Notes under the pieces: model-generated
What the model saw: the letters and a program-made list of their open reading frames with translations, nothing else
What the model was told of the DNA's origin: nothing
Databases searched by the model: none
Shown here: in pieces, positions 4,249-60,257 of the stretch
Layout: each line of letters starts with the position of its first letter
Position numbering within the stretch: position 1 is the stretch's first letter
Made by a program: the position numbers and the translations under genes
Virus record (IMG/VR): IMGVR_UViG_3300047445_000122
DNA from: a virus
Lineage: Duplodnaviria > Heunggongvirae > Uroviricota > Caudoviricetes
DNA length: 64,000 bases
Reading direction: 5' to 3' (one strand)

Positions 4249-4890
4249 TTACTTGAAGACGATGTTGATGTTGTCCGGCTTACTCAGCTTGTACACGCGA
4301 TCCTTACCGGCCTTTGCTTCAGACAGAAGCTCGCAGCCGTATTGTTTCGGGTAGTAGTACAGGTACGAGGTCACGCCGGTCTCGGACACATCCATCGCCT
4401 TCATCAGCTTCGGCACGGTGGAGCCGTCCTTCAGCATCAGTTGGCTCATGAGCTTGCCGATCTTGCTTGCTTTCTTGATCGTGACCGTGGTGATGCCGTT
4501 TTCGGTCACTGGAGAACCAGCAGTTGGAACACCAGACGCTGCCTGAGCTGCGTCTTGCTTCGCTGCGGGCTTCACAGCCGGTGCCGCGCCGCCTTTAGCT
4601 TGATTCGCCGCCTTCGTTGCCGGAGCCTTAGCGGCTGGGGCAGCACCGACAGCACCCAGGTTCTGGAGGGTCATCGCTGCCATTACGCCGGGGTGGATAC
4701 CTGCGGCGGTCAGCTTCGAGACATCCATGAACGGAATCACCGGTTTCGGCAGCACTTCAACTTCCATCATGATCTGTACGCTCTTTACCGTACCGAACTG
4801 ACCGGTGGAGGCGTCCAGGATGCTTAGGGCTTCAGCGCCTTCAACGGAGCCGGTGGACAGTTTCAGGTTGATGGTTTTGGTGTTCGACAT
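4249..4890 (-). CDS. hypothetical protein with an Ala/Lys-rich low-complexity centre (213 aa)
   Basis: Start reassigned to ATG 4890 (MSNTKT) with GGAG 8 nt upstream. AAKAPATKAANQAKGGAAPAVKPAAK repeat-like segment. Confidence 0.45.
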   Translation of the reverse strand: MSNTKTINLKLSTGSVEGAEALSILDASTGQFGTVKSVQIMMEVEVLPKPVIPFMDVSKLTAAGIHPGVMAAMTLQNLGAVGAAPAAKAPATKAANQAKGGAAPAVKPAAKQDAAQAASGVPTAGSPVTENGITTVTIKKASKIGKLMSQLMLKDGSTVPKLMKAMDVSETGVTSYLYYYPKQYGCELLSEAKAGKDRVYKLSKPDNINIVFK

Positions 4891-5034
4891 TTTGATTCTC
4901 CATTTCAAAGTAAGTTTGTATTTGTTGATGAGACTTGTTTCACTTCAAGGCCACTTGGGTCTTTTCGCTACTCCGGTTTTTCTCAACCGATGAATAGAAT
5001 CATAGTCTTGGTCTTTTGAAAAGTAAAGAGATTT

Positions 5035-5511
5035 TTAGAAAATTTTCTCGACCTCAATATTTTCCCGGCTACGTTGTTGAATGCCGTACAACTCCAAGAC
5101 ACCTTGAGTTCCACCGTATGCCTCGATTTCCCAGGGCAGAGCAATGAATTGCTCAGCATTCTCAGGCGGGCGGTAAAGAGTCCCATCCCAGAGGAAACCC
5201 CACTTAATACCGGCGTCAGTGCGCATCAAGGTATATTGCAAACGACCCTCGGAGAGCTGACGAGCGTGAATCGATTCGTGGGCCAACACCTCACGGATTT
5301 TGTCCAAGCTGTCGTTATCATTGCGGTTGTAGTACACCAGCAAGTTGCCCTTTTCCTCTTGAACGAACGCCTTACACAGCCCGGAGTCATCAAACTGCTG
5401 GAAGCGGATGATGACGTCATTGTATCGGGTTTGTGAGAACGCGAACAGACCGAAGTGTTCAATGTCCTTCACGGCGGATTGCGTCAAACCTACAGATTCT
5501 ACATATAGCAT
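5035..5511 (-). CDS. hypothetical protein with an HExxH motif (possible metallopeptidase)
   Basis: AHESIHARQ motif. A promoter -10 (TATAAT on the minus strand at 5585..5590) and a terminator at 5645..5680 lie upstream. Confidence 0.35.
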   Translation of the reverse strand: MLYVESVGLTQSAVKDIEHFGLFAFSQTRYNDVIIRFQQFDDSGLCKAFVQEEKGNLLVYYNRNDNDSLDKIREVLAHESIHARQLSEGRLQYTLMRTDAGIKWGFLWDGTLYRPPENAEQFIALPWEIEAYGGTQGVLELYGIQQRSRENIEVEKIF

Positions 5512-5644: not shown

Positions 5645-5680
5645 GAAAAATGCCGGGCCAAGAATCACCCGGCATTTCAT
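5645..5680 (-). terminator. rho-independent terminator
   Basis: GCCGGG..CCCGGC hairpin flanked by A and T runs. Confidence 0.5.
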
Positions 5681-5699
5681 AGAGCGAGAGGAAGGAAAA

Positions 5700-6710
5700 T
5701 CAACCGCGCAGCATCATCGTTTCTGCGGTGTCCAACCACTCATCGCCGTCCGTCTTCATATAGCTCGCCAGCTTCAGCACGGAGCGGATCGACAACTCAC
5801 GCATACGCTCGGCATGAGTAGACAGCCATTCGATCAGCATCTCACCCTCTTCTTCATTCAGGCCTTGCTCCGAGATCAGGTCAGAGGTGGCGATGACTTG
5901 CTTGATGCGGATCAAGATTTCACGGTTGGTGTGAACTTTCAAGTCCAGGTAGTTCGAGCGGGAGATCAGCGCCTTGAAGTGCTCCGACATCGTGCCGCCC
6001 TTCTCGATCACGCGGTCAAAGTCCTTGTTGGTGATGAAGGCGATGGTGCCTTCAAAATCAAACTCTTGAGGGATGCCGTTTTCCTCGAACCAGGAGGAGG
6101 CGGAAGGGTAGGACAGGTTGCGAGAGCCGGTGTCCAGCGCTGCCTTCAGGAAGTTCAGGCAATCCTCGTCAGCGAACACGGAGTCAATATCATCGAACAC
6201 CAGAACTTGACCCGGATTCGAGTGTTGGAACAGTTGGGTGTACAGGCCCAGTGGGGTGATCTTGCCGCGCAGGTGGGTGAACTTCTCAATCTCACGACCG
6301 CGCAGGGCTTTGTGAAGGCGCTTCTCCAGGGTGTAGGTCTTACCCACGCCTGGGGCTGCGGAAATGATCAGGGCTTTCACGGAGCCGGTCACCAGGCCTT
6401 CCACCATACGATCCATCACGCGGAAGCGCTTGGCGATGATCTCACCCAGTTCTTCGTCAGTCAACTCAATCGAAGCAGCGTGAGGCTGGACCATCGGGCT
6501 GTTAGCGCCGGTCATCTCAGCAGGTACGCCGTCAATCGTCATGTCCTTACGCCAAGCCTGAACGCCGATCTTCTTGCCGTCGCGGATGATGTACACGTAC
6601 ACATCGCGCTTGTTCTCCTTGTCGCCGCTGATGATTTCCACCAGAGGGAAGGTGCCGGTCAGTTCACGGCCATAGTAGGTTGCGGAGGTCAGGGTGATGG
6701 TTTTGAACAT
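5700..6710 (-). CDS. AAA+ family ATPase
   Basis: Walker A motif AAPGVGKTYT and Walker B motif VLVFDDIDS. Start reassigned to ATG 6710 (AAGGAAA SD), because the conserved promoter -10 at 6751..6756 lies inside the longer track ORF. Confidence 0.6.
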   Translation of the reverse strand: MFKTITLTSATYYGRELTGTFPLVEIISGDKENKRDVYVYIIRDGKKIGVQAWRKDMTIDGVPAEMTGANSPMVQPHAASIELTDEELGEIIAKRFRVMDRMVEGLVTGSVKALIISAAPGVGKTYTLEKRLHKALRGREIEKFTHLRGKITPLGLYTQLFQHSNPGQVLVFDDIDSVFADEDCLNFLKAALDTGSRNLSYPSASSWFEENGIPQEFDFEGTIAFITNKDFDRVIEKGGTMSEHFKALISRSNYLDLKVHTNREILIRIKQVIATSDLISEQGLNEEEGEMLIEWLSTHAERMRELSIRSVLKLASYMKTDGDEWLDTAETMMLRG

Positions 6711-7375: not shown

Positions 7376-7424
7376 AAAAGAAAAGCCCCTGAGACGAATC
7401 TCAGGGGCTTTTTCGTTACTTCGT
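7376..7424. terminator. bidirectional rho-independent terminator
   Basis: AAAAGCCCCTGAGA-cgaa-TCTCAGGGGCTTTTT. Confidence 0.7.
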
Positions 7425-7712
7425 GGCTCTGTTGTACGTATCCCACGATTCCTTGTGGCGTTCATACTCACGCACTACGTCCCGGAACCAGGCGGTCATC
7501 TCATTCACAGGGAAGCGACTGGCTTGACCCTCGTTGTACTGGATCCCCGTTCCCGGCGATTCCCAGACCCGCTTGTGGTACTTGAACTTGAAGCCAAAAA
7601 TCTTGACTTCCTTCTGAACATACAAGCGGACAACAGCCTTGGAGTATTCAGCAACCGTCCAGCGACATTGATAGTCACCCAGACGGCCTTTGATCAACAT
7701 GGAGTTGCGCAT
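7416..7712 (-). CDS. hypothetical protein (98 aa)
   Basis: Complete ORF, coupled to the upstream ACP-fusion gene, followed by the terminator at 7376..7424. Confidence 0.4.
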   Translation of the reverse strand: MRNSMLIKGRLGDYQCRWTVAEYSKAVVRLYVQKEVKIFGFKFKYHKRVWESPGTGIQYNEGQASRFPVNEMTAWFRDVVREYERHKESWDTYNRATK

Positions 7713-9070
7713 TACTTGGTGTTGTACAGTTCGCGGCCATAGGCCTGGCTGACATCACCCAGCACGATGTACTTACAGCAACGGCACTTGTCGAAGTTGT
7801 AGTCAGTCGGTACGGACACGATGTCGCGTGGATCGACCTTGACTTCAACCAGGCGGTCGCCGCCGCTGGAGCTGGAGAAGTGACGGACATAGCCCGGAGC
7901 ACAGATGTGCAGACCGTGGGAGCAAGTCACGTTGTCGCGGTCATCGACCTTGGAACGTGGCATCTCGACAGTCAGGCCTGGGTTGTTCTTCATCGTACCA
8001 GTGTACTTGTCCAGGTAGTTGTTGCGTACAACCTTCAGGGCGATGATGTCGCCGTCGCCGTCGATGCGGAGGCCAGTCTTGGTCACGAAGTTGAACAGGT
8101 TCTTGTTGACGCGGAAGGAATGGGATTCTTCCAGCTTCTCGAAGAAGCGGCTGAACTTCTCCAGACCCTTTTCATCGGAGTCTTCCAGGCAGCGCATCAT
8201 CACGCCAGCCAGTTCGGAGTCGATGCGCTTGCCATCGAACGTCACACCCTGGGCGGTCACGACCATCTTGCCACTGGACCAGCGCGACAGAGCACCAACC
8301 ATGTCGATCAGATCGTACAGCAGTTGCAGGTCTTTCTTGTAAATCTGGTTGTTCTGGACGTTGGCCACAATCGCGCTGATCTTGTCATAGTTCTTGTGGG
8401 TCTTGTCAATCTGCAGTGGAGTGCTGTCGCGCACCACAGTCAGAACTTGAGGCAGGACGATGGCCTGGAACGGCACCAGAACATCAGGCTCGGTGTCATC
8501 CGCAGCCAGGGAGTTGGTAGGCAGTTCATCGACCGCCTTCATGATGAACAGAACAGCATCCTTGACGGTCTTGATCTTCTCAACATCTTCATCTGGAATC
8601 TCGATGTCGAACTCATCTTCCAGAGCCATAGCCAGCTCAACGGTGTCCAGGGAATCAGCGCCCAGGTCATCGATGAAGTGGGATTCTGGGGATACATCAC
8701 CGGCATCAACGCCCAGTTGATCAATGATGACTTCGATGGTCTTGTTCAGGATGGTGGTGTTCAGCTCAGGCTCCGGGGCCGGAACGATCTTGGCTTCAGC
8801 CGGGATCGCCTTGGACTTGCGTGGCTTGGCTTCCTTCTTCGCCTTCGGTTTGCGCACACGCTTCGGCGCGGCTGCTTTCTTGGCCTTCTTGGTGGTCTTG
8901 GCCTCAACCTGTTCTTCGGTTGGCTTCGGTGCGTTCTCTGCTACAGCCCAGCGAGCCAGGGTGGAGCGGGAGATACCAACCTTGTCAGCCGCTTCCGACT
9001 TGCTCAGACCATTGGCCTGGTAGTTCTGGAAGCTGATAACTGCTTGGATTTGTTGACTCGTCAGAATCAT
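7712..9070 (-). CDS. multidomain protein: N-terminal HTH, Lys-rich linker, acyl-carrier-protein (ACP) domain, and a C-terminal 250-aa domain of unknown function
   Basis: Residues about 115..185 ([59 protein letters not shown]) match bacterial AcpP almost motif-for-motif, including the DSL phosphopantetheine-attachment serine. N-terminal [20 protein letters not shown] helix-turn-helix. Strong SD before ATG 9070. Confidence 0.7.
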
Positions 9071-12429: not shown

Positions 12430-12580
12430 GATATTGGGTCGCCACACAGTGGGTCAACCCAATCAATATTCCAACCGTAAGTGCTTGATTCTACAGGTTG
12501 AGAAAATTGACTTTATTGGAATTGCTGTTGTGAATTCCGAGACAAGAAAAAGCCCCTGGTGGGAACCAGGGGCATGTTGT
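12430..12580. repeat. intergenic repeat element, copy B
   Basis: CCGTAAGTGCTTGATTCTACAGG ... TTGACTT ... GGAATT-GCTGTTGTG-AATTCC hairpin ... AAAAAGCCCCTGG..CCAGGGGC terminator ... ATGTTGTTA. Confidence 0.65.
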
Positions 12581-12858
12581 TACTTGAGAATCGCCAGACA
12601 GCTTTCTCGGTCTTTGTTCAGAGAGTCAGTCCACTGAACCACTGCCATGTCGCGGATCGAAGTGACCAGGGCTTCGACATCCCAATTGGTCAGATCGGCT
12701 TCGATGAACATGACCTTGCCATCATCCAGACGCCAGTTACACACCAGGTCAACCTTCAGTGTCTTCGGGCCGTTGTCTACATCGACACGCATCCAAGACA
12801 CGAACCAACCGGCGTTGATGGTGGCCAGGAGCTCATCAACAGTATACAGACGGCGCAT
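12580..12858 (-). CDS. hypothetical protein (92 aa)
   Basis: Complete ORF with an ATGA overlap to the TAXI gene. Followed by repeat-element copy B with its terminator. Confidence 0.4.
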   Translation of the reverse strand: MRRLYTVDELLATINAGWFVSWMRVDVDNGPKTLKVDLVCNWRLDDGKVMFIEADLTNWDVEALVTSIRDMAVVQWTDSLNKDRESCLAILK

Positions 12859-18854: not shown

Positions 18855-19460
18855 TTATTGGATTGTGACGAACGATTGTTCAATGAAGTCATCGTCCTCC
18901 ATGCCCAACTTATCTGCCATGCGACGCAGGAGATTCATGAGGCTGTTGGTATGGACGATTTGTGAGTTGTAAACCTTGAGACCTGCCAGCTGCTCTTGGA
19001 ATTTAGCAACTTGGTTCTTCAGACTCACGACCTCGGAGAGAGCCGAAATTATAGTGGATTTGGTCTCGAAAGTAAAGGAGCTGAGCTTGTTGAACAAGGC
19101 CTGTTCCTCAACTGTGATCGTGCCATAGATGTGGGCTCCCACAAAGCAAACCTCATCATACTCAAACCCCAGTTCCTCCAGCTTGCTGCTGTTCATGCTC
19201 ATCAGCTCGAAAGCCGCGTCCATGGTCAGCGGCCACAGAGTCCGGTCCAGGACGTTCACTTGGGCAACAACGATGTGTGTCCCGATGACGTCTTTCTGGT
19301 CGTTAGGCAAGATTCCGGCGGCTGGTGACCCGAATTGGTTGAGGTGGTGAGAAAGCTCAACGTACAAGCGTTTAGCCACCTCCTCGGTCAAGCACACGAA
19401 GCGCATGCTCAGAGTCTTCGCGGTCGGGTTCTCCTTGAAGTTCTTCACGTCGTCAAGCAC
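18855..19460 (-). CDS. hypothetical protein (201 aa)
   Basis: Complete ORF between the MazG-like gene and uvsX. Confidence 0.4.
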   Translation of the reverse strand: MLDDVKNFKENPTAKTLSMRFVCLTEEVAKRLYVELSHHLNQFGSPAAGILPNDQKDVIGTHIVVAQVNVLDRTLWPLTMDAAFELMSMNSSKLEELGFEYDEVCFVGAHIYGTITVEEQALFNKLSSFTFETKSTIISALSEVVSLKNQVAKFQEQLAGLKVYNSQIVHTNSLMNLLRRMADKLGMEDDDFIEQSFVTIQ

Positions 19461-20065
19461 AGAGCCTCCTCATTGGCTTTCACATCGACTCCCTTCATCA
19501 CGCCCTTCGCCACGCGCTCATGGTTGCGCTTGTTCTTGAGCATGTAGGCTTCATACAACTCATCGTTGTTGTAGCCCAGGAAGGCGATGCCATGTTGGAT
19601 GAAGTCGATCAAGTACGACATCGTGAACTTGGCTTGGGACATTGCCAACTTGTATGTGTTGGAGCGTGCCGGGCTGATGTCATTCCAGAAATGACGGTAG
19701 GCATCAGACAACTTCGAGTAGAAGTTGGGCTGGTCTGGGGTGACCACATAGCCGGTCGGGAGCGCTTCAATGTCGTCAATCTCGATCATTGGGTAGTGCT
19801 TGACGTATCCGGCGAGCATGAAGTGGATCACATCTACCAGCTCGAACAGGGCTGCTTCACGGTTGAAGACAGGCTTGCGTTCATACCACTTCCACTTCTC
19901 CGTGACTTCCTCCAGGAATTCAGCCAGTTCAGTGTCTGCGGCGGCGTTGAAACGCCAAGCGAATGTTGGGTCAGTTCTCCAGCCGTCGCCATTGTAAGCC
20001 GTGTTGAGGGCTTCTTGAGAACGGCACATGGAACGAATTTGATGGAGGGTCACGATATGGGACAT
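19445..20065 (-). CDS. MazG-like NTP pyrophosphatase (T4 gp56 dCTPase/dUTPase-like)
   Basis: KWKWYERK...ALFELVDVIHFMLAGYV parallels T4 gp56 KWKARYIEAQEK...EIKFELVDIFHFVLNMFVG. Confidence 0.65.
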   Translation of the reverse strand: MSHIVTLHQIRSMCRSQEALNTAYNGDGWRTDPTFAWRFNAAADTELAEFLEEVTEKWKWYERKPVFNREAALFELVDVIHFMLAGYVKHYPMIEIDDIEALPTGYVVTPDQPNFYSKLSDAYRHFWNDISPARSNTYKLAMSQAKFTMSYLIDFIQHGIAFLGYNNDELYEAYMLKNKRNHERVAKGVMKGVDVKANEEALCLTT

Positions 20066-20647: not shown

Positions 20648-21724
20648 TTACTCCATAATGTTGAATTTGCGGAACGGCGACCAGGTCACGGCGCTCAGGA
20701 GGTCGCCTTGGAGGCGGCGCGTTACGCGGTGTTGGTAGATCACACCCTTCTTCGACAGGATATATCCATACACCAGAGCAGCGTATTCATACATCAGGTC
20801 GCCGTAACCGACAGCATAGCGATCAAAGATGTCTTCGATCTGGTTCCAGTGTTTGCCCCTCTCAGCTTCCAGGATTTCAGTGGTCTGGGTGATCATGGAA
20901 CCGTATTGAGCAATCAGCTCGCTGAAGAAGTGTTCCCACACCAGGTGACCGCCAACTGGACCAACCAGAGCAACATCATTCTCATGGAAGTTCTGTTTCT
21001 CCTCCAGGACAGCATCGAACTGGTCAATGAAGTCGCTGTAGACGTGGGCATTGGTGACGTGCCAGCGGTAGGAACCCAGCTTCACAGTCGGGTGGATCTT
21101 CTTCACCTCATTGTACATCAGCTCGTGGATGAAACTGAACTCGAATGGGTTGATCGAGCCAGTACCAAACAACAGGTCGCCAGAGCGTTGGATACACTTG
21201 GTGTGGAACTCACCATTCTCCACATAGAAGTGGAGCTCACGATTGCATGGGATGTCTTTTGGTACATGACCTTCACCATACACAGCTTCGATGGCTTCCA
21301 GGTTGTCGATGGTTGGGTCAGCAATCGTGACGAAGGAGCGGCGGGTGTTGATACCGTCATTGCGGAATTGATCAACAGCAGTCTGGAACTGGCTGTAACG
21401 ATGGAGGCGAGGGCCGTATGCGCCGTGCCAGGTAACTCCATCATCGCTGTAGTTCTTTGCGCGGGGCAGGAAGAAGTCCAGGTATGGGGTCACTGCGTTG
21501 GCTCCAGCCATGACCCAGAAGGTCTCAGCGATCAGCTGGAAGATGTTGGATTTGCGTCCGTGGAGGTGTAGGTGGCGGGAGCGGGGATTTTTGAACTCCA
21601 GCGTCGTGTCGTACATCGCCAGAGCGTACCCATTGCGGGTGTCTTGTTTGATACCTTCCTTTTGAAGGGCTTGGAAGGCTCGGTGGATTGTGTGTGAGAC
21701 GGTGTTGCCTCGGATAGTTCTCAT
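20648..21724 (-). CDS. ThyA-superfamily enzyme (thymidylate synthase or dUMP/dCMP hydroxymethylase) with about 90-aa C-terminal extension
   Basis: ThyA landmarks in order: RNGYA, ETFWVM, YGP, NTRRSFVT, catalytic PCN, QRSGDLLFG...N, AHVYS. The sequence continues a further 90 aa beyond the canonical fold. Confidence 0.75.
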   Translation of the reverse strand: MRTIRGNTVSHTIHRAFQALQKEGIKQDTRNGYALAMYDTTLEFKNPRSRHLHLHGRKSNIFQLIAETFWVMAGANAVTPYLDFFLPRAKNYSDDGVTWHGAYGPRLHRYSQFQTAVDQFRNDGINTRRSFVTIADPTIDNLEAIEAVYGEGHVPKDIPCNRELHFYVENGEFHTKCIQRSGDLLFGTGSINPFEFSFIHELMYNEVKKIHPTVKLGSYRWHVTNAHVYSDFIDQFDAVLEEKQNFHENDVALVGPVGGHLVWEHFFSELIAQYGSMITQTTEILEAERGKHWNQIEDIFDRYAVGYGDLMYEYAALVYGYILSKKGVIYQHRVTRRLQGDLLSAVTWSPFRKFNIME

Positions 21725-28564: not shown

Positions 28565-29611
28565 TTAAATCAGGCTGTGCGTTGTCGCTTTCGGCTGGGG
28601 AGCGCCTGCGCCGTTGTACTTCGAGCGTACTTGACCACCTTCCTTCAGCCGCAGATACTTGTCTGTTTCGCACAACAGGTTACTGCCGATGTTGTGGGCA
28701 TCTTCGAGGTGGAATTGTACAAGGGCTTCAACTTCAGCGCTGTAGCCATGCTGAATAGCAACTTGTGGCAATGCGACCTTCACCGCCTCCGACAGTTGAG
28801 CAAGCTCAAGGTAGTGTTGAGCTACCGGGATGGACTTGGTCAGTGGGCGACCATGAAGGCGATTCAAGAAGCGAACCGGGCCAGGGCCGATTGGCGCCCA
28901 GGTCTTCCAATCCGGGGCATCGCGCATGGTCATGTACTTCAAGTCTGCGATTTGCTGACCTGCCATGAAGTCACCGTTGGACTTGGCCTTGGTGAGGCGG
29001 CTGTGATAGCTCTGAAGGGTCTCCCCGGCTTCTGGCGGGCCAATTTCATAGATCGCCTTGAAGACGACATGAGCCAGGAAGTAGCGCTTGTCCTTGCACT
29101 TCTCGTACAACTCCAGGTCACCATCGACTTCAGCCGGGTTCCCGCAACCACGGATCATGTAGGCACCGGTGAACAGCTTGTCTTCCCTGCCGACAGCGCA
29201 GAAGCGGGTATACAGGTCATCAGCGTCATAGCCGTTCGTCAAGTCAGTCCAACCCAGCTTCAGGACGGTCGGAGACCAGTTGATCCAGCGCGCTACAGCG
29301 ACGTTGAACCACATGTCCTTGGAGTGATGATGTGGAGTGTAGAACTCCTTGAACAAAATCTCAGTCTCCTTGTCGTGCATGCGGTTGACGTTACAAAAAC
29401 GATGGTCGCGGATGAAGGTGTCTTCGGTCCACGGCTTGGGTTGACCTTCAGCTTTCTTGATGCGGACGGTCTCCCGCTCCAGTGCCCACTCACAGGCAGC
29501 GATCACATGGTTATGATAGTTGGCGGCGAACTCACCGTTGGCCTTGATCTGGTCTTCCAGGGTCTGGGACAGTTCAACAGCCTTGTCAAGTTTTTCAATC
29601 AGTGTGTTCAT
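28565..29611 (-). CDS. hypothetical protein (348 aa); candidate DNA-modification enzyme
   Basis: Conserved-looking globular protein with no motif I can name. Coupled by an ATGA overlap to the downstream P-loop kinase gene. Confidence 0.45.
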   Translation of the reverse strand: MNTLIEKLDKAVELSQTLEDQIKANGEFAANYHNHVIAACEWALERETVRIKKAEGQPKPWTEDTFIRDHRFCNVNRMHDKETEILFKEFYTPHHHSKDMWFNVAVARWINWSPTVLKLGWTDLTNGYDADDLYTRFCAVGREDKLFTGAYMIRGCGNPAEVDGDLELYEKCKDKRYFLAHVVFKAIYEIGPPEAGETLQSYHSRLTKAKSNGDFMAGQQIADLKYMTMRDAPDWKTWAPIGPGPVRFLNRLHGRPLTKSIPVAQHYLELAQLSEAVKVALPQVAIQHGYSAEVEALVQFHLEDAHNIGSNLLCETDKYLRLKEGGQVRSKYNGAGAPQPKATTHSLI

Positions 29612-34854: not shown

Positions 34855-34892
34855 GAAAAAGCCCCTGGACGGACCAGGGGCTTTTTGTATTT
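34855..34892 (-). terminator. terminator at the end of the tRNA array
   Basis: AAAGAAAAAGCCCCTGGAC-g-GACCAGGGGCTTTTTG, immediately 3' of the last tRNA (minus sense). Confidence 0.7.
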
Positions 34893-35228: not shown

Positions 35229-35516
35229 TCACTTGATCACAACCAGGATGTCTTCGTTGGACAGGATCAGATATTCCACGCCGTCAACCTTCACACCCTG
35301 ACCGGCGCCACGCTTGTGGACGATCTTGTCGCCCTTGTGGAAGGGTTCTGATTCACGCAGAGCGCCGGTGCTGACGTGGGAGACTTCAACCACAATGCCT
35401 TCAGAGACAGAAGCAGCAGGAGCCGGGGCGACGATGATACCGCCAGCTGAGGTTTCAGGGGCGGATTCACGCGTGATCACGCAGTAGCCTGGAGTTGGCT
35501 TGATTTGTTTGGACAT
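35229..35516 (-). CDS. GroES-like co-chaperonin (Hsp10; T4 gp31 analogue)
   Basis: IVHKRGAGQGVKVDGVEYLILSNEDILVVI matches the GroES C-terminus. Start set to ATG 35516 (MSKQIKPT) with AAGGAAA SD, because the longer track ORF would run into tRNA genes. Confidence 0.7.
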   Translation of the reverse strand: MSKQIKPTPGYCVITRESAPETSAGGIIVAPAPAASVSEGIVVEVSHVSTGALRESEPFHKGDKIVHKRGAGQGVKVDGVEYLILSNEDILVVIK

Positions 35517-35614: not shown

Positions 35615-35697
35615 TGGTGGGGATACAGGGACTCGAACCCAGACGCCGAAGCCGGAGCGTTTGAAACTCCTGTGTCTACCAATTTCACCATATCCCC
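35615..35697 (-). tRNA. tRNA-Leu (CAA), class II
   Basis: Anticodon stem GGAGT/GCTCC with loop TTCAAAC, and a long variable arm. Confidence 0.6.
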
Positions 35698-35818
35698 AAA
35701 TTTCAACACCATCCTTACGCCCTCGCCCATCTATCGTGACAAGTTAGCAGAACTTCGGTGCACCTCACTTCAAGCAGTGCTGGCTACGCTGCACGGACTG
35801 CCGAATGATGTTGAAATT

Positions 35819-35894
35819 TGGAGCGGGTGACAGGTCTCGAACCTGCGCATGCCGGCTTGGAAGGCCAGTGCTTTACCAACTTAGCTACACCCGC
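35819..35894 (-). tRNA. tRNA-Gly (TCC)
   Basis: Perfect acceptor stem GCGGGTG/CACCCGC, anticodon loop CTTCCAA, encoded CCA. Confidence 0.8.
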
Positions 35895-37309: not shown

Positions 37310-37506
37310 AATGTTAGGTGTCAATGCTGGATTGTTGTGGAAGGATTTCAAGTGTTATGCCCTTGTTCTCCAACATTGACGGGGATGGTCGGCAGACTAC
37401 CCTTATGTAGTGTGACATTCCTCCAACCGGACATATTCTAACGCATGTTGGCGTCTAGTCTATCCGGCGGAATGCCGTTTTGGTTTTAAACTACTGCCGT
37501 TTGATC

Positions 37507-37582
37507 TTGGTGGTAGGGGCAGGGATCGAACCTGCGACCTGTGGATTATCGGTCCACTGCTCTGCCAACTGAGCTACCCCAC
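37507..37582 (-). tRNA. tRNA-Ile (GAT)
   Basis: Perfect anticodon stem GTGGA/TCCAC with loop CCGATAA. Note C at position 33. Confidence 0.6.
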
Positions 37583-37597
37583 CGGGTTGGTACTTAG

Positions 37598-37685
37598 ACC
37601 ATACATAACAACACTCGCGCCTTCTCTGAACATGTAGGCACTGTAGTGGGTTTCTGTTCCTCAGGAGGAGTGTTGTTATGTATGG
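37598..37685. repeat. 18-bp perfect inverted repeat (CCATACATAACAACACTC / GAGTGTTGTTATGTATGG) with a 52-nt loop
   Basis: Seen directly in the sequence. The right arm overlaps the 3' end of tRNA-Ser(TGA) by 3 nt. Confidence 0.6.
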
Positions 37686-37775
37686 CGGAAATGGTGAGAC
37701 TCGAACTCACACAGCGGTTGCCCGCCCTTCAGTTTTCAAGACTGCTGCCGCTAGGCCAACTCGGCTAACATTTCC
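37683..37775 (-). tRNA. tRNA-Ser (TGA), class II
   Basis: Acceptor stem GGAAATG/CATTTCC, anticodon loop CTTGAAA, long variable arm. Confidence 0.65.
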
Positions 37776-37868: not shown

Positions 37869-38221
37869 AGTGTTTGGTGTGATCTCCTTGATACCGCCTC
37901 AGACCCTGTCTATGCATTCGGGCGTCACACTCTTCAGGTTTCAATCCCGGTTACAGCGTCCGGGGAACTAACGCCAGGCCCACTAGACGGAGGCTGGTGC
38001 TCTGTTGTACTGACTCTCTCAAATTGCACTTGAGGGCGTGTGCGCGGGAGTCTGCTTTTGCCCTGAATTCTGTCCACCCGAAAATCAAGTACATCCACTG
38101 TCCGCTGACTGGAAGCGGGGTTCGTATCAATCTTGATGTTGGGAAAGGGTGTCTCCATCTGATTCCAACGTTGCCTCCAACCCCTCTCGACCAGTCAGCC
38201 CGATACTCATTGGATATTCTG

Positions 38222-38530: not shown

Positions 38531-38618
38531 AAAACTACTGAAGTGAGAATCCTCTACATCGCGGCGGCAAGGACGCATCAGGCGTCCAATGTAGTTGACT
38601 CTCGCTTCAGGAGTCTGA

Positions 38619-38863: not shown

Positions 38864-38920
38864 TTTGTTACTACAGCAGGGTATCAGTTCGCCGGAGCGG
38901 AATTGCTCGACGTGAAGAGA

Positions 38921-38953
38921 ATTATAGACCACTTCTGCTAAGAAGTAAAGCTC
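38921..38953 (-). promoter_or_regulatory. promoter of the tRNA array
   Basis: Minus strand reads GCTTTACTT..GTGGTCTATAAT, about 55 nt upstream of the first (highest-coordinate) tRNA. The 24-nt leader is identical to the one at 43684..43711. Confidence 0.55.
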
Positions 38954-38972
38954 AACTTACTTGACAACCGAA

Positions 38973-39890
38973 TTACATGTTGTTGTCGTACATCCACTGC
39001 ATCTGCGCCTTCACGTTTGCGAGGGAACCCACGATCACGTAGTTGACGAAGATGTAAACGCCGTCTGGGACGATGTTAGGGATGCGGAACACAGCATTCC
39101 ACTTCACAACCGGGTTGATGCCAGTCGCCTGATAGTTCCAGCGACCGAAACCCGCACCAGGGTAAGTCGATTGTGGCAGGGAACGGTTGTAGATACCCAT
39201 TGCATGAGTACCATTGCTGTTAGCGAAGATCAGCGGAAGACCTTGTTCAGGGCTGCAAGTCGCATAGGGCGGCGTGCAGTAGCTGATCGAGGCCAGTTGA
39301 CGACTGCCCTTCACATCCAGGGTGTAGAAGTTGTTGAACTCAACAGGCATGTAGCCGGTCAGGGTCTCGAACTTACCACGCACCCAGGATGGTTCGCCGG
39401 TGCTCTTGGGTGCTGCGTATTGAACTTCATAGCGCATGTAGGTCGCATAGGAACCTTCATACAGCTGGATGTTCTTGGTCAGCAACCAGTTGGACCGGGC
39501 CACACCGTTCACAGGGCGCCAGTACGACATCATGTTCACGCCCTTGACGGTCGGAGGAGTCGCCAGGGTGCTGTAGTTCACAGCGATACTCGTGGAGGCA
39601 GAAGGATTGACGCCGTTGTAGGGCACTTCCGCCCCGGCTTCGTTGGGGTTGTAGTTCTCTTCCAGGTCGCCAGACGCATTGCTGACAGTCATGGAGGATT
39701 GGAGTTGACGGCCATGGTCATAGTCGTCAATGAACTCCTTGCCGCTCCACTTCACGGAGCAAACTGCTTCAGCATCCCAGGAGCAGGTCTTAACAGTCAC
39801 ACCACGCGACGGCGAGGTGATAGTGTAGTCTGCCCAAGCCGGGGAGGAGATACCAACGATCATTGCCATTGCTGCGATAATACGCTTCAT
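38973..39890 (-). CDS. secreted protein of unknown function (306 aa)
   Basis: Start reassigned to ATG 39890 (AAGGAAA SD), giving the signal peptide MKRIIAAMAMIVGISSPAWA. Several Cys pairs. Confidence 0.5.
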   Translation of the reverse strand: MKRIIAAMAMIVGISSPAWADYTITSPSRGVTVKTCSWDAEAVCSVKWSGKEFIDDYDHGRQLQSSMTVSNASGDLEENYNPNEAGAEVPYNGVNPSASTSIAVNYSTLATPPTVKGVNMMSYWRPVNGVARSNWLLTKNIQLYEGSYATYMRYEVQYAAPKSTGEPSWVRGKFETLTGYMPVEFNNFYTLDVKGSRQLASISYCTPPYATCSPEQGLPLIFANSNGTHAMGIYNRSLPQSTYPGAGFGRWNYQATGINPVVKWNAVFRIPNIVPDGVYIFVNYVIVGSLANVKAQMQWMYDNNM

Positions 39891-39989
39891 GCCATTTCCT
39901 TTATGGTTGTTTTCTTTCGCGCCGCCCCGAATGAGGCGACGGAAAGAATTATAAACCACAATATCAACGGCGTAAAGATCAATATTTTA

Positions 39990-41222: not shown

Positions 41223-41350
41223 AAAATCTCCATTTGTTGACCACATTGGAACACCCTCAACTCCCATCAACCGCGCACTTGCGGTCTATGAAGATCGACC
41301 TCTGTCAAGGCCATTTCTGAGTGACAGCTCATCTCAAGGACGTTCTAATG

Positions 41351-41428
41351 TGGTGCGTCGTACAGGAATCGAACCCGTGACCTGTCTGGTTAGGCGCCAG
41401 ACTGCTCTGCCAACTGAGCTAACAACGC
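41351..41428 (-). tRNA. tRNA-Arg (CCT)
   Basis: Acceptor stem GCGTTGT/ACGACGC, anticodon stem TCTGG/CCAGA with loop CGCCTAA, T-loop TTCGATT. Confidence 0.5.
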
Positions 41429-60118: not shown

Positions 60119-60250
60119 CCCCTGGTACAGCCCCATGGATTTATGGCCCGTAAGTGGTTGATTCTACAGGGCGTAAAATCCCACTTAACTGGATTTGTTG
60201 TTGTGAAATCCAGACAATAAAAATGCCCTGGGACTTCCTCCCAGGGCATT
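60110..60250. repeat. intergenic repeat element, copy D
   Basis: TGACCCCTGGTACAG ... CCGTAAGTGGTTGATTCTACAGGGCGTAAAAT ... CTGGATTT-GTTGTTGTG-AAATCCAG hairpin ... AAAAATGCCCTGGG..CCCAGGGCA ... CTTGTTATTA. Confidence 0.65.
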
Positions 60251-60257
60251 CTTGTTA

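Follow-up and report, generated by a model that had tools for sequence, protein, structure and literature searches.

What fills the space between the tRNA genes of a phage, and why should one such space consist almost entirely of a single hairpin with a perfectly paired stem? The question is raised by an uncultured T4-like phage in which the gap between tRNA-Ser(UGA) and tRNA-Ile(GAU) is filled by an 87-nt hairpin, which we call H1. Phage tRNA arrays are studied mainly for their tRNAs, as a codon supply and as a means of escape from tRNA-cleaving defences; to our knowledge, the spacers of these arrays are usually ignored. We analyzed H1 within the 64,000-nt stretch of DNA that contains it (the window), which is part of a 165-kb JGI metagenome contig (3300046684, Ga0495669_0000010).

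A T4-type phage with a tRNA array on one strand

The gene content of the window is that of a T4-type myovirus, including rIIA/rIIB, a DnaB-like helicase, UvsX, an RNA ligase and the gp6 baseplate wedge, and the phage also encodes HMUDK- and thymidylate-synthase-like genes. Its closest cultured relatives are Delftia phage PhiW-14, Acinetobacter phages nACB2 and SH-Ab 15599, and Ralstonia phage RSP15, with a protein identity of about 50% or less. HMUDK_hel, dUTPase_2 and thymidylate-synthase-like genes are located at 28565-29611, 19445-20065 and 20648-21724, respectively, a set that suggests a hypermodified-thymidine DNA pathway as in PhiW-14. The rIIB homologue (7712-9070, minus strand) has an acyl-carrier-protein (PP-binding) domain at residues ~108-182, an unusual fusion.

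ARAGORN and Rfam place 20 tRNA genes between 34893 and 41519, all on the minus strand, and gene callers report no gene between 37151 and 38972. The following signals lie at the borders of the region that contains H1:

38921-38949, minus strand: sigma-70-like promoter match (TTTACT-17-TATAAT), upstream of the tRNA sub-array with H1
34856-34886, bidirectional: strong intrinsic terminator hairpin, directly after tRNA-Thr

The promoter match (38949-38921) is the likely start of the tRNA precursor transcript, and the terminator (34886-34856) is the likely end of the array transcript. Sigma-70-like matches of the form TTTAC(T/G)-17-TATAAT on the minus strand are carried by a 38-nt direct repeat (38918-38955 and 39945-39982, 71% identical), one copy of which sits just upstream of the main tRNA sub-array. 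The terminator hairpin is one copy of a repeated cassette, comprising five near-identical bidirectional hairpins built on AAAAAGCCCCTGG...CCAGGGGCTTTTT, and these are the elements that an earlier note on this DNA had called repeat-element terminators:

1558-1595, 7381-7412, 12544-12581, 34856-34886 and 60216-60256: copies of the terminator cassette, AAAAAGCCCCTGG...CCAGGGGCTTTTT

The array also holds a GroES/Cpn10 gene (~35229-35516, minus strand), positioned between tRNA-Cys and tRNA-Trp. A GroES gene inside the tRNA array is found as well in a relative of the phage, L007, and in Stenotrophomonas phage DLP6.

H1 occupies the gap between tRNA-Ser(UGA) and tRNA-Ile(GAU)

The gap and its borders are made up of the following parts, listed in the order of the transcript:

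37683-37775, minus strand: tRNA-Ser(UGA), the upstream tRNA (ARAGORN, Rfam), with its 3' GCCA drawn into the H1 stem
37668-37685, minus strand: 5' arm of H1 in the transcript, CCAUACAUAACAACACUC, which begins with the encoded CCA of tRNA-Ser(UGA) (37685-37683)
37617-37667, minus strand: loop of H1, 51 nt, with weak inner helices GAACA/UGUUC and CCU/AGG
37599-37616, minus strand: 3' arm of H1, GAGUGUUGUUAUGUAUGG; the U at 37598 may extend the stem
37584-37598, minus strand: 15-nt leader of tRNA-Ile, UCUAAGUACCAACCC, between H1 and the tRNA-Ile 5' end
37508-37583, minus strand: tRNA-Ile(GAU), the downstream tRNA (ARAGORN, Rfam)

The transcript therefore runs from the ...GCCA end of tRNA-Ser into H1, whose 5' arm begins on the CCA, and then through the leader UCUAAGUACCAACCC into tRNA-Ile. 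Read on the plus strand, the arms are CCATACATAACAACACTC at 37599-37616 and GAGTGTTGTTATGTATGG at 37668-37685, with complementarity at 18/18 positions and 51 nt between them. The earlier note had reported a perfect 18-bp inverted repeat between tRNA-Ile and tRNA-Ser(TGA), which is indeed present; it had placed the start of the left arm at 37598 and counted a loop of 52 nt, where the actual start is 37599 and the loop 51 nt. The overlap of 3 nt that it saw with the 3' end of tRNA-Ser corresponds to 37683-37685, which by ARAGORN coordinates is the encoded 3'-CCA. Together, the discriminator G (37686) and the U at 37598 could contribute an extra G.U pair on the minus-strand RNA, which on the plus strand is an A.C mismatch. 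Except for this first U, able to pair with G37686, the 15-nt leader is single-stranded.

The H1 stem is A/U in 11 of its 18 positions, and its AU-rich bases resemble the ordinary 3' trailers of the array's other tRNAs. The entire Ser(UGA)-Ile gap measures 99 nt (37584-37682), is ORF-free and contains no promoter or terminator match. A small ORF in the H1 loop was considered and rejected, as there is just a 19-codon frame that lacks a ribosome-binding site and runs into tRNA-Ile. The loop is without a T-arm, and we recognized no motif in it.

The H1 inverted repeat is not a chance occurrence

When loops of up to 200 nt are allowed, no other perfect inverted repeat in the 64-kb window is as long as H1. 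In dinucleotide-preserving shuffles (n=100), the longest repeat was usually 11-12 bp with a maximum of 17 bp, and 18 bp was reached in 0/100. The minimum free energy (MFE) of the 103-nt H1 RNA is -41.1 kcal/mol versus -19.7 +/- 3.1 for shuffled sequences (z = -7.0), none of which was equally stable (0/200). The H1 inverted repeat is real and non-random, and chance is excluded as its origin.

The MFE structure of H1 is identical to the centroid and has an ensemble frequency of 0.57. Its helix consists of 18 Watson-Crick pairs and one G.U pair, followed by one pair beyond a bulge and then three more. In the predicted co-fold with both flanking tRNAs, H1 and both acceptor stems all form. H1 shows little discrimination between sense and antisense strands (-41.1 vs -38.7) because its stem is perfectly Watson-Crick.

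H1 has no second copy and matches no known RNA family

BLAST found no second copy of H1 in the window, which covers 64 kb of the 165-kb genome, or in the related and comparison loci that were fetched. A search with a 17-mer of the arm across 185,579 prokaryotic genomes (596 Gb) returned 28 single matches and no inverted pair, with ~70 estimated by chance. On the basis of these copy-number searches, which covered 64 kb of the phage genome, we rejected a repeated mobile element. The earlier note had also linked a core sequence, TGTTGTTA, to the terminator repeats, a link that is not significant: the window has 5 matches against 1.39 expected, two of them being the H1 arms themselves, and of the three outside H1 only one (12575) abuts a terminator hairpin.

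None of the Rfam 15 covariance models, including those for tRNA, YrlA, self-cleaving ribozymes and sRNAs, matched at its gathering threshold. Among matches with E <= 10, H1 overlapped only a spurious mir-194 hairpin (17 bits versus a 52-bit gathering score). We rejected a hammerhead-like CUGAGGA...GAAA in the H1 loop, where the needed core-flanking helices cannot form and no ribozyme model scores, and a decayed tRNA in the spacer, for which the tRNA model has no match even at E <= 10.

Sister hairpins lie in the same array

We folded all inter-tRNA spacers in the window and found that H1 is not unique. Sister hairpins, here H2, H3 and H4, are located behind tRNA-Gly, tRNA-Glu and tRNA-Arg(CCU):

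35698-35818, minus strand: H2, the whole tRNA-Gly to tRNA-Leu(CAA) spacer; 17-bp stem, arms 35696-35712 and 35805-35821
38531-38618, minus strand: H3, the whole tRNA-Glu to tRNA-Asn spacer; MFE -40.6, z = -6.6; the stem stops 1 nt before tRNA-Asn
41240-41354, minus strand: H4, behind tRNA-Arg(CCU); arms 41337-41354 (starts at ACCA) and 41240-41257; z = -3.8

Each of these hairpins occupies a spacer or trailer and starts 0-5 nt from the upstream CCA. The stem of H2 (z = -2.2) has one G.U pair on the minus strand and ends at position -1 of tRNA-Leu. That of H4 is formed by 15 Watson-Crick pairs, two G.U pairs and one mismatch, and its 3' arm covers the ATG (41246) of a 123-aa ORF. The tRNA-sense strand is the stabler one in H2 (-40.8 vs -28.7 for antisense) and H4 (-46.2 vs -40.1), and also in the analogous hairpins of two relatives, L046 (-37.1 vs -30.7) and L012 (-46.9 vs -31.2), because of G.U pairs. 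A sense-strand preference of this kind is the signature of selection on RNA rather than DNA.

The CCA has a pairing probability of 1.00 in H1 and H4, which is reached by at most 1% of shuffled spacers. CCA sequestration does not hold for H2 or H3, and as a general rule of the hairpins we dropped it, given that it is true of H1 and H4 alone. Paralogy of H1, H2 and H4 was rejected as well: their arms share just an AU-rich tract and a CAAC-like motif, which is not significant, and their loops are unrelated.

The ORF-free tRNA-Ile to tRNA-Pro spacer (37310-37507, minus strand, 198 nt) folds into two hairpin domains (z = -4.59, 0/200 shuffles as stable) and includes a weak promoter-like match (37462-37435). 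A further structured spacer or a small RNA may be encoded here. The 353-nt stretch between tRNA-Ser(GGA) and tRNA-Ser(GCU) (37869-38221, minus strand) has no called gene and an ordinary fold (z = -1.2). A 74-codon ATG ORF (37934-38158) is present in this stretch and was left uncalled by the gene callers.

Hairpin spacers recur sporadically in distant relatives

None of the collections searched contained an H1 homologue or any homologous Ser(UGA)-Ile junction. IMG/VR yielded no relative when queried with the 173-aa ORF adjoining H1, the helicase and the 3' 23-mer of tRNA-Ser, and in INPHARED DNA searches, near and distant, the matches cover tRNAs only and never the H1 spacer. The 173-aa ORF is an orphan, its sole match being a fragment of itself. 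The contigs with this ORF (n=13), which come from several samples, all match the window; of the six that were fetched, five match at 100% and the sixth has a single gap, located outside H1. Samples with this phage include JGI 3300046684 and 3300046501, as well as SRR26075505, SRR26076575 and SRR26077541. The best helicase relatives are at most 67% identical. Some of the relatives' contigs are broken at the tRNA array (L007, L009, L010, L067 and L068), and in others the array has a different gene order (L008, L011, L012, L043, L045, L046 and L048). With the 328-aa ORF of the tRNA region as query, we obtained bacterial chromosomal homologues and no phage contigs. This ORF (38973-39959, minus strand) matched no PHROG family and has homologues in the hundreds, including a chromosomal gene in the genome of the myxobacterium Hyalangium with 55% identity; by its sequence matches it looks acquired from bacteria.

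In L007 (66% helicase identity), tRNA-Phe is followed by 12 nt and then by a tRNA-Leu(CAA) ~95% identical to that of the window. The unit of tRNA-Gly and H2 is absent from L007, which is the closest relative with data, and hairpin spacers are therefore evolutionarily labile and dispensable.

We next compared the duplex energy of the first and the last 30 nt of each spacer with that of shuffles, as a measure of end-to-end pairing. The set comprised 40 inter-tRNA spacers that lack ORFs and measure 45-260 nt, drawn from the window, L012, L043, L011, L045, L048, L046, DLP6 and RSP15, two of these arrays being near-identical. End-to-end pairing at p <= 0.03 was present in 10 of the 40 spacers, with ~1.2 expected, and the end-paired spacers of L046 and L012 include terminal stems of at least 18 bp. 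In L046, a relative with 48% identity, the 87-nt spacer between tRNA-Lys and tRNA-Arg (467-553) has a perfect 18-bp terminal stem (z = -6.35). The L046 hairpin encloses a T-arm-like CAUGGUUCAAUUCCAUG and is tRNA-like or Y-RNA-like, and ARAGORN does not recognize it. In L012, the CCA of a suppressor tRNA is immediately followed by an AU-rich stem of ~20 bp. In Stenotrophomonas phage DLP6 and Ralstonia phage RSP15, the majority of similarly long spacers do not form closed hairpins; therefore, such hairpins are no general requirement of phage tRNA arrays. Closed-hairpin spacers are recurrent but sporadic, and they occur in distant relatives too.

H1 resembles several known systems in part

The closest parallels are the processing stems cut by RNase III, such as the 16S and 23S stems of the E. 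coli rrn operon and the R sites of the T7 early region. Like them, H1 is a double-stranded helix of about two turns in a long precursor, situated between mature RNAs of the same strand (tRNA-Ser(UGA) and tRNA-Ile(GAU)) and beside the RNase P site of the next tRNA. With RNase III stems having ~20 bp or more, or two helical turns, the H1 helix is at the lower edge of typical substrates. An rrn stem is formed by sequences that flank a mature RNA, whereas H1 lies wholly within a spacer. T7 sites have characteristic internal loops; the H1 stem, in contrast, is perfect and has no sequence relationship to them.

The T4 RNAs rnaC (species 1) and rnaD (species 2) are non-tRNA structured RNAs of ~120-140 nt next to tRNAs and on the same strand, and H1 likewise lies within a phage tRNA cluster, on the same strand and without an ORF. 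However, the folds differ: rnaC carries a T-arm like that of a tRNA (CCGGGUUCGAAUCCCGG), and no long terminal stem dominates its structure, whereas H1, at 87 nt, is a plain hairpin that lacks tRNA-like elements. With H1 as the query, BLAST found no match in the T4 locus.

In Murid gammaherpesvirus 68, tRNA-miRNA-encoding RNAs (TMERs) are Pol III transcripts of a eukaryotic virus that pass through an RNase Z and Dicer pathway. H1 shares with TMERs the arrangement of a tRNA-shaped unit followed by a long hairpin, such that tRNA 3'-end processing would free the hairpin. It differs from them as a predicted hairpin of a bacterial virus, where TMERs use RNase Z and Dicer.

Closer to home, the terminators of the same phage (AAAAAGCCCCTGG...CCAGGGGCTTTTT) are, like H1, perfect or near-perfect intergenic inverted repeats, but they are GC-rich, have 4-5-nt loops, are flanked by both A- and T-runs, and exist in five copies, whereas H1 is AU-rich and unique. 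Miniature inverted-repeat transposable elements (MITEs) are similar to H1 as short elements bounded by terminal inverted repeats, which in H1 (~87 bp) would be the perfect 18-bp arms. Unlike MITEs, H1 exists as one copy and lacks an unambiguous target-site duplication, and no further copy turned up in the window, the related loci or the 185,579 prokaryotic genomes.

H1 as a proposed structured spacer of a tRNA precursor

What, then, is H1? The explanation that we favor, tentatively and at a little under even confidence, is that it acts at the RNA level, as a structured spacer or processing stem in a polycistronic tRNA precursor. The non-random stem with its AU-rich bases, the set of four hairpins, the strand preference, the excess of end pairing, the paired CCA of H1 and H4 and the lack of coding or other-class signal all count for a structured spacer. 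The perfect Watson-Crick stem of H1, the lability of such spacers, their sporadic occurrence, the unpaired CCA of H2 and H3 and the failure to find a phage RNase III among the proteins examined count against it. Of the functions offered by the earlier note, the RNase processing signal fits all of our observations and is the one we prefer, now as a sense-strand RNA structure of about two helical turns within a precursor, in which the cleavage itself is what we infer.

Alternatively, H1 might itself be the product, that is, a tRNA-linked small stable RNA of ~87-100 nt with a regulatory or anti-defence role that is freed by tRNA-Ser 3' processing and RNase P. T4 offers a precedent, since its tRNA cluster has two small stable RNAs annotated immediately after tRNA-Arg; a terminal stem of 18-20 bp would make a good exonuclease block; the hairpins H1-H4 and those of L046 and L012 are discrete and strongly folded, with z from -2.2 (H2) to -7.0 (H1); and the L046 element with its T-arm-like CAUGGUUCAAUUCCAUG resembles a designed RNA. 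Nevertheless, we consider a small stable RNA unlikely, as H1-H4 have no common loop motif and are unlike T4 rnaC, rnaD or any Rfam family, H1 has no T-arm, H2 is missing in L007, and our searches found no H1 homologue, which is unusual for a functional sRNA. An account in which H1 has no dedicated function deserves about as little credence: a quasi-palindrome in a decaying spacer could have been perfected by intrastrand template switching and tolerated as harmless. The DNA-perfect stem, without a G.U in 18 bp, is predicted by such templated correction and is not required by RNA-level selection; in addition, H1 is lineage-specific, hairpin spacers are labile between relatives, and the loop sequences are unconserved. 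Neutrality is harder to reconcile with four hairpins in one array that fit edge-to-edge with tRNA ends, with the sense-specific G.U pairs of H2 and H4, and with the excess of closing stems over shuffles (10/40 vs ~1.2 expected), which argues for selection on RNA structure.

A role at the DNA level, in which the inverted repeat would either bound a miniature mobile element or serve as a recombination, cruciform or endonuclease site in the shuffling of tRNA genes, appears very unlikely. It would account for 18-bp terminal inverted repeats around a short core with TA on either side, and for the variable tRNA content among relatives, such as the indel of tRNA-Gly and H2 relative to L007. Yet TA is palindromic and simply part of the repeat, which leaves the flanking TA ambiguous as a sign of a target-site duplication. 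H1 occurs once in the window and in none of the fetched loci, the 17-mer arm matches (28 in 596 Gb) are near chance, single and non-inverted, the repeat runs into a functional CCA, the sister hairpins form better pairs in sense RNA than in DNA, and no homing endonuclease gene is nearby. None of our observations supports the recombination site proposed in the earlier note, and the 51-nt loop is unfavorable for cruciform extrusion. The probability that H1 is a transcription terminator or attenuator dividing the tRNA array is close to negligible. It is a strong hairpin within a transcription unit, but no U-tract follows the stem on its 3' side, where the tail is UCUAAGUACC (leader UCUAAGUACCAACCC). 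The loop of 51 nt compares with 3-8 nt for intrinsic terminators, the terminator scan did not list H1, and the AU-rich stem stands against the GC-rich terminators of the window with their 4-5-nt loops and T-runs. A terminator here would also cost tRNA-Ile and eight further downstream tRNAs their only evident strong promoter. The attenuator of the earlier note fares no better, for it would need mutually exclusive structures: H1 has one dominant structure (frequency 0.57), the MFE fold equals the centroid, and neither a competing fold nor an alternative pairing with the flanking tRNAs was found.

For the structured spacer, a course of events can be proposed. Its enzymatic steps are all inferred, whereas our data directly show the structure itself, the preference of the sister hairpins for one strand, where the hairpin lies with respect to the tRNA ends, and that neither a coding signal nor a match to a known family is present. 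Transcription of the array would proceed along the minus strand, with the promoter-like site at 38949-38921 as its probable start and the terminator at 34886-34856 as its probable end. The 99-nt gap would then fold almost wholly into one hairpin, with a helix of 19-20 bp starting from the discriminator and CCA of tRNA-Ser, and the 15 nt left over would serve as the leader of tRNA-Ile. Such a helix could hold a long untranslated spacer double-stranded, preventing mispairing with tRNAs, Rho loading and random RNase E entry. RNase P would cleave at the 5' end of tRNA-Ile and remove the leader, and a double-strand-specific endonuclease, presumably of the host RNase III type, would cleave the two-turn helix. 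The proteins examined, which represent part of the window's ORFs, include no phage RNase III. The leftover AU-rich base of the stem might then melt, allowing 3' exonucleases to shorten the trailer of tRNA-Ser as far as the encoded CCA. Folding that is closed by a helix leaves the spacer sequence free, and this fits the absent sequence conservation and the lability.

H1 is best described as a further instance of an established type of element, namely the spacers in precursors of stable RNAs that are structured or serve processing. Its mildly unusual trait, in the predicted fold, is the inclusion of the upstream tRNA's CCA in the helix. By analogy with TMERs, the CCA-anchored hairpins (H1 and H4) could conceivably form a phage device in which 3' ends are locked, maturation is timed by a double-strand cut and the released hairpin RNAs are regulatory or anti-defence, a phage counterpart of TMERs that we regard as quite improbable. 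Most likely, H1 is a fairly ordinary element: the tRNA precursor transcript has several structured spacers, of which it would be one.

These results indicate that ORF-free spacers can consist almost entirely of long, sense-strand-specific hairpins that abut or include the tRNA 3' CCA. If the hairpins direct processing, they would set the amount and timing of each tRNA; if they are released as RNAs, they would make up a class of phage small RNAs that has been overlooked. The evidence so far shows the hairpins to be lineage-specific, labile and without sequence conservation, and their practical value is modest. We advise annotating H1 as a structured spacer and not as a terminator, mobile element or gene.

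Further features of related arrays

The arrays of the relatives hold other RNA genes. ARAGORN detects a permuted tmRNA (tag AAQAIAKARASAFAANDAYALAAA) beside the tRNAs in L011 (1190-1655) and L043 (1610-2075). L012, a relative with 52% identity, is a contig of NCBI assembly GCA_040384245.1. At 4816-4896, 5212-5289, 5673-5752 and 8728-8818, the L012 array contains its suppressor tRNA (anticodon tta) and several tRNAs with abnormal anticodon loops, and an additional, undetected tRNA lies at ~5040-5120.
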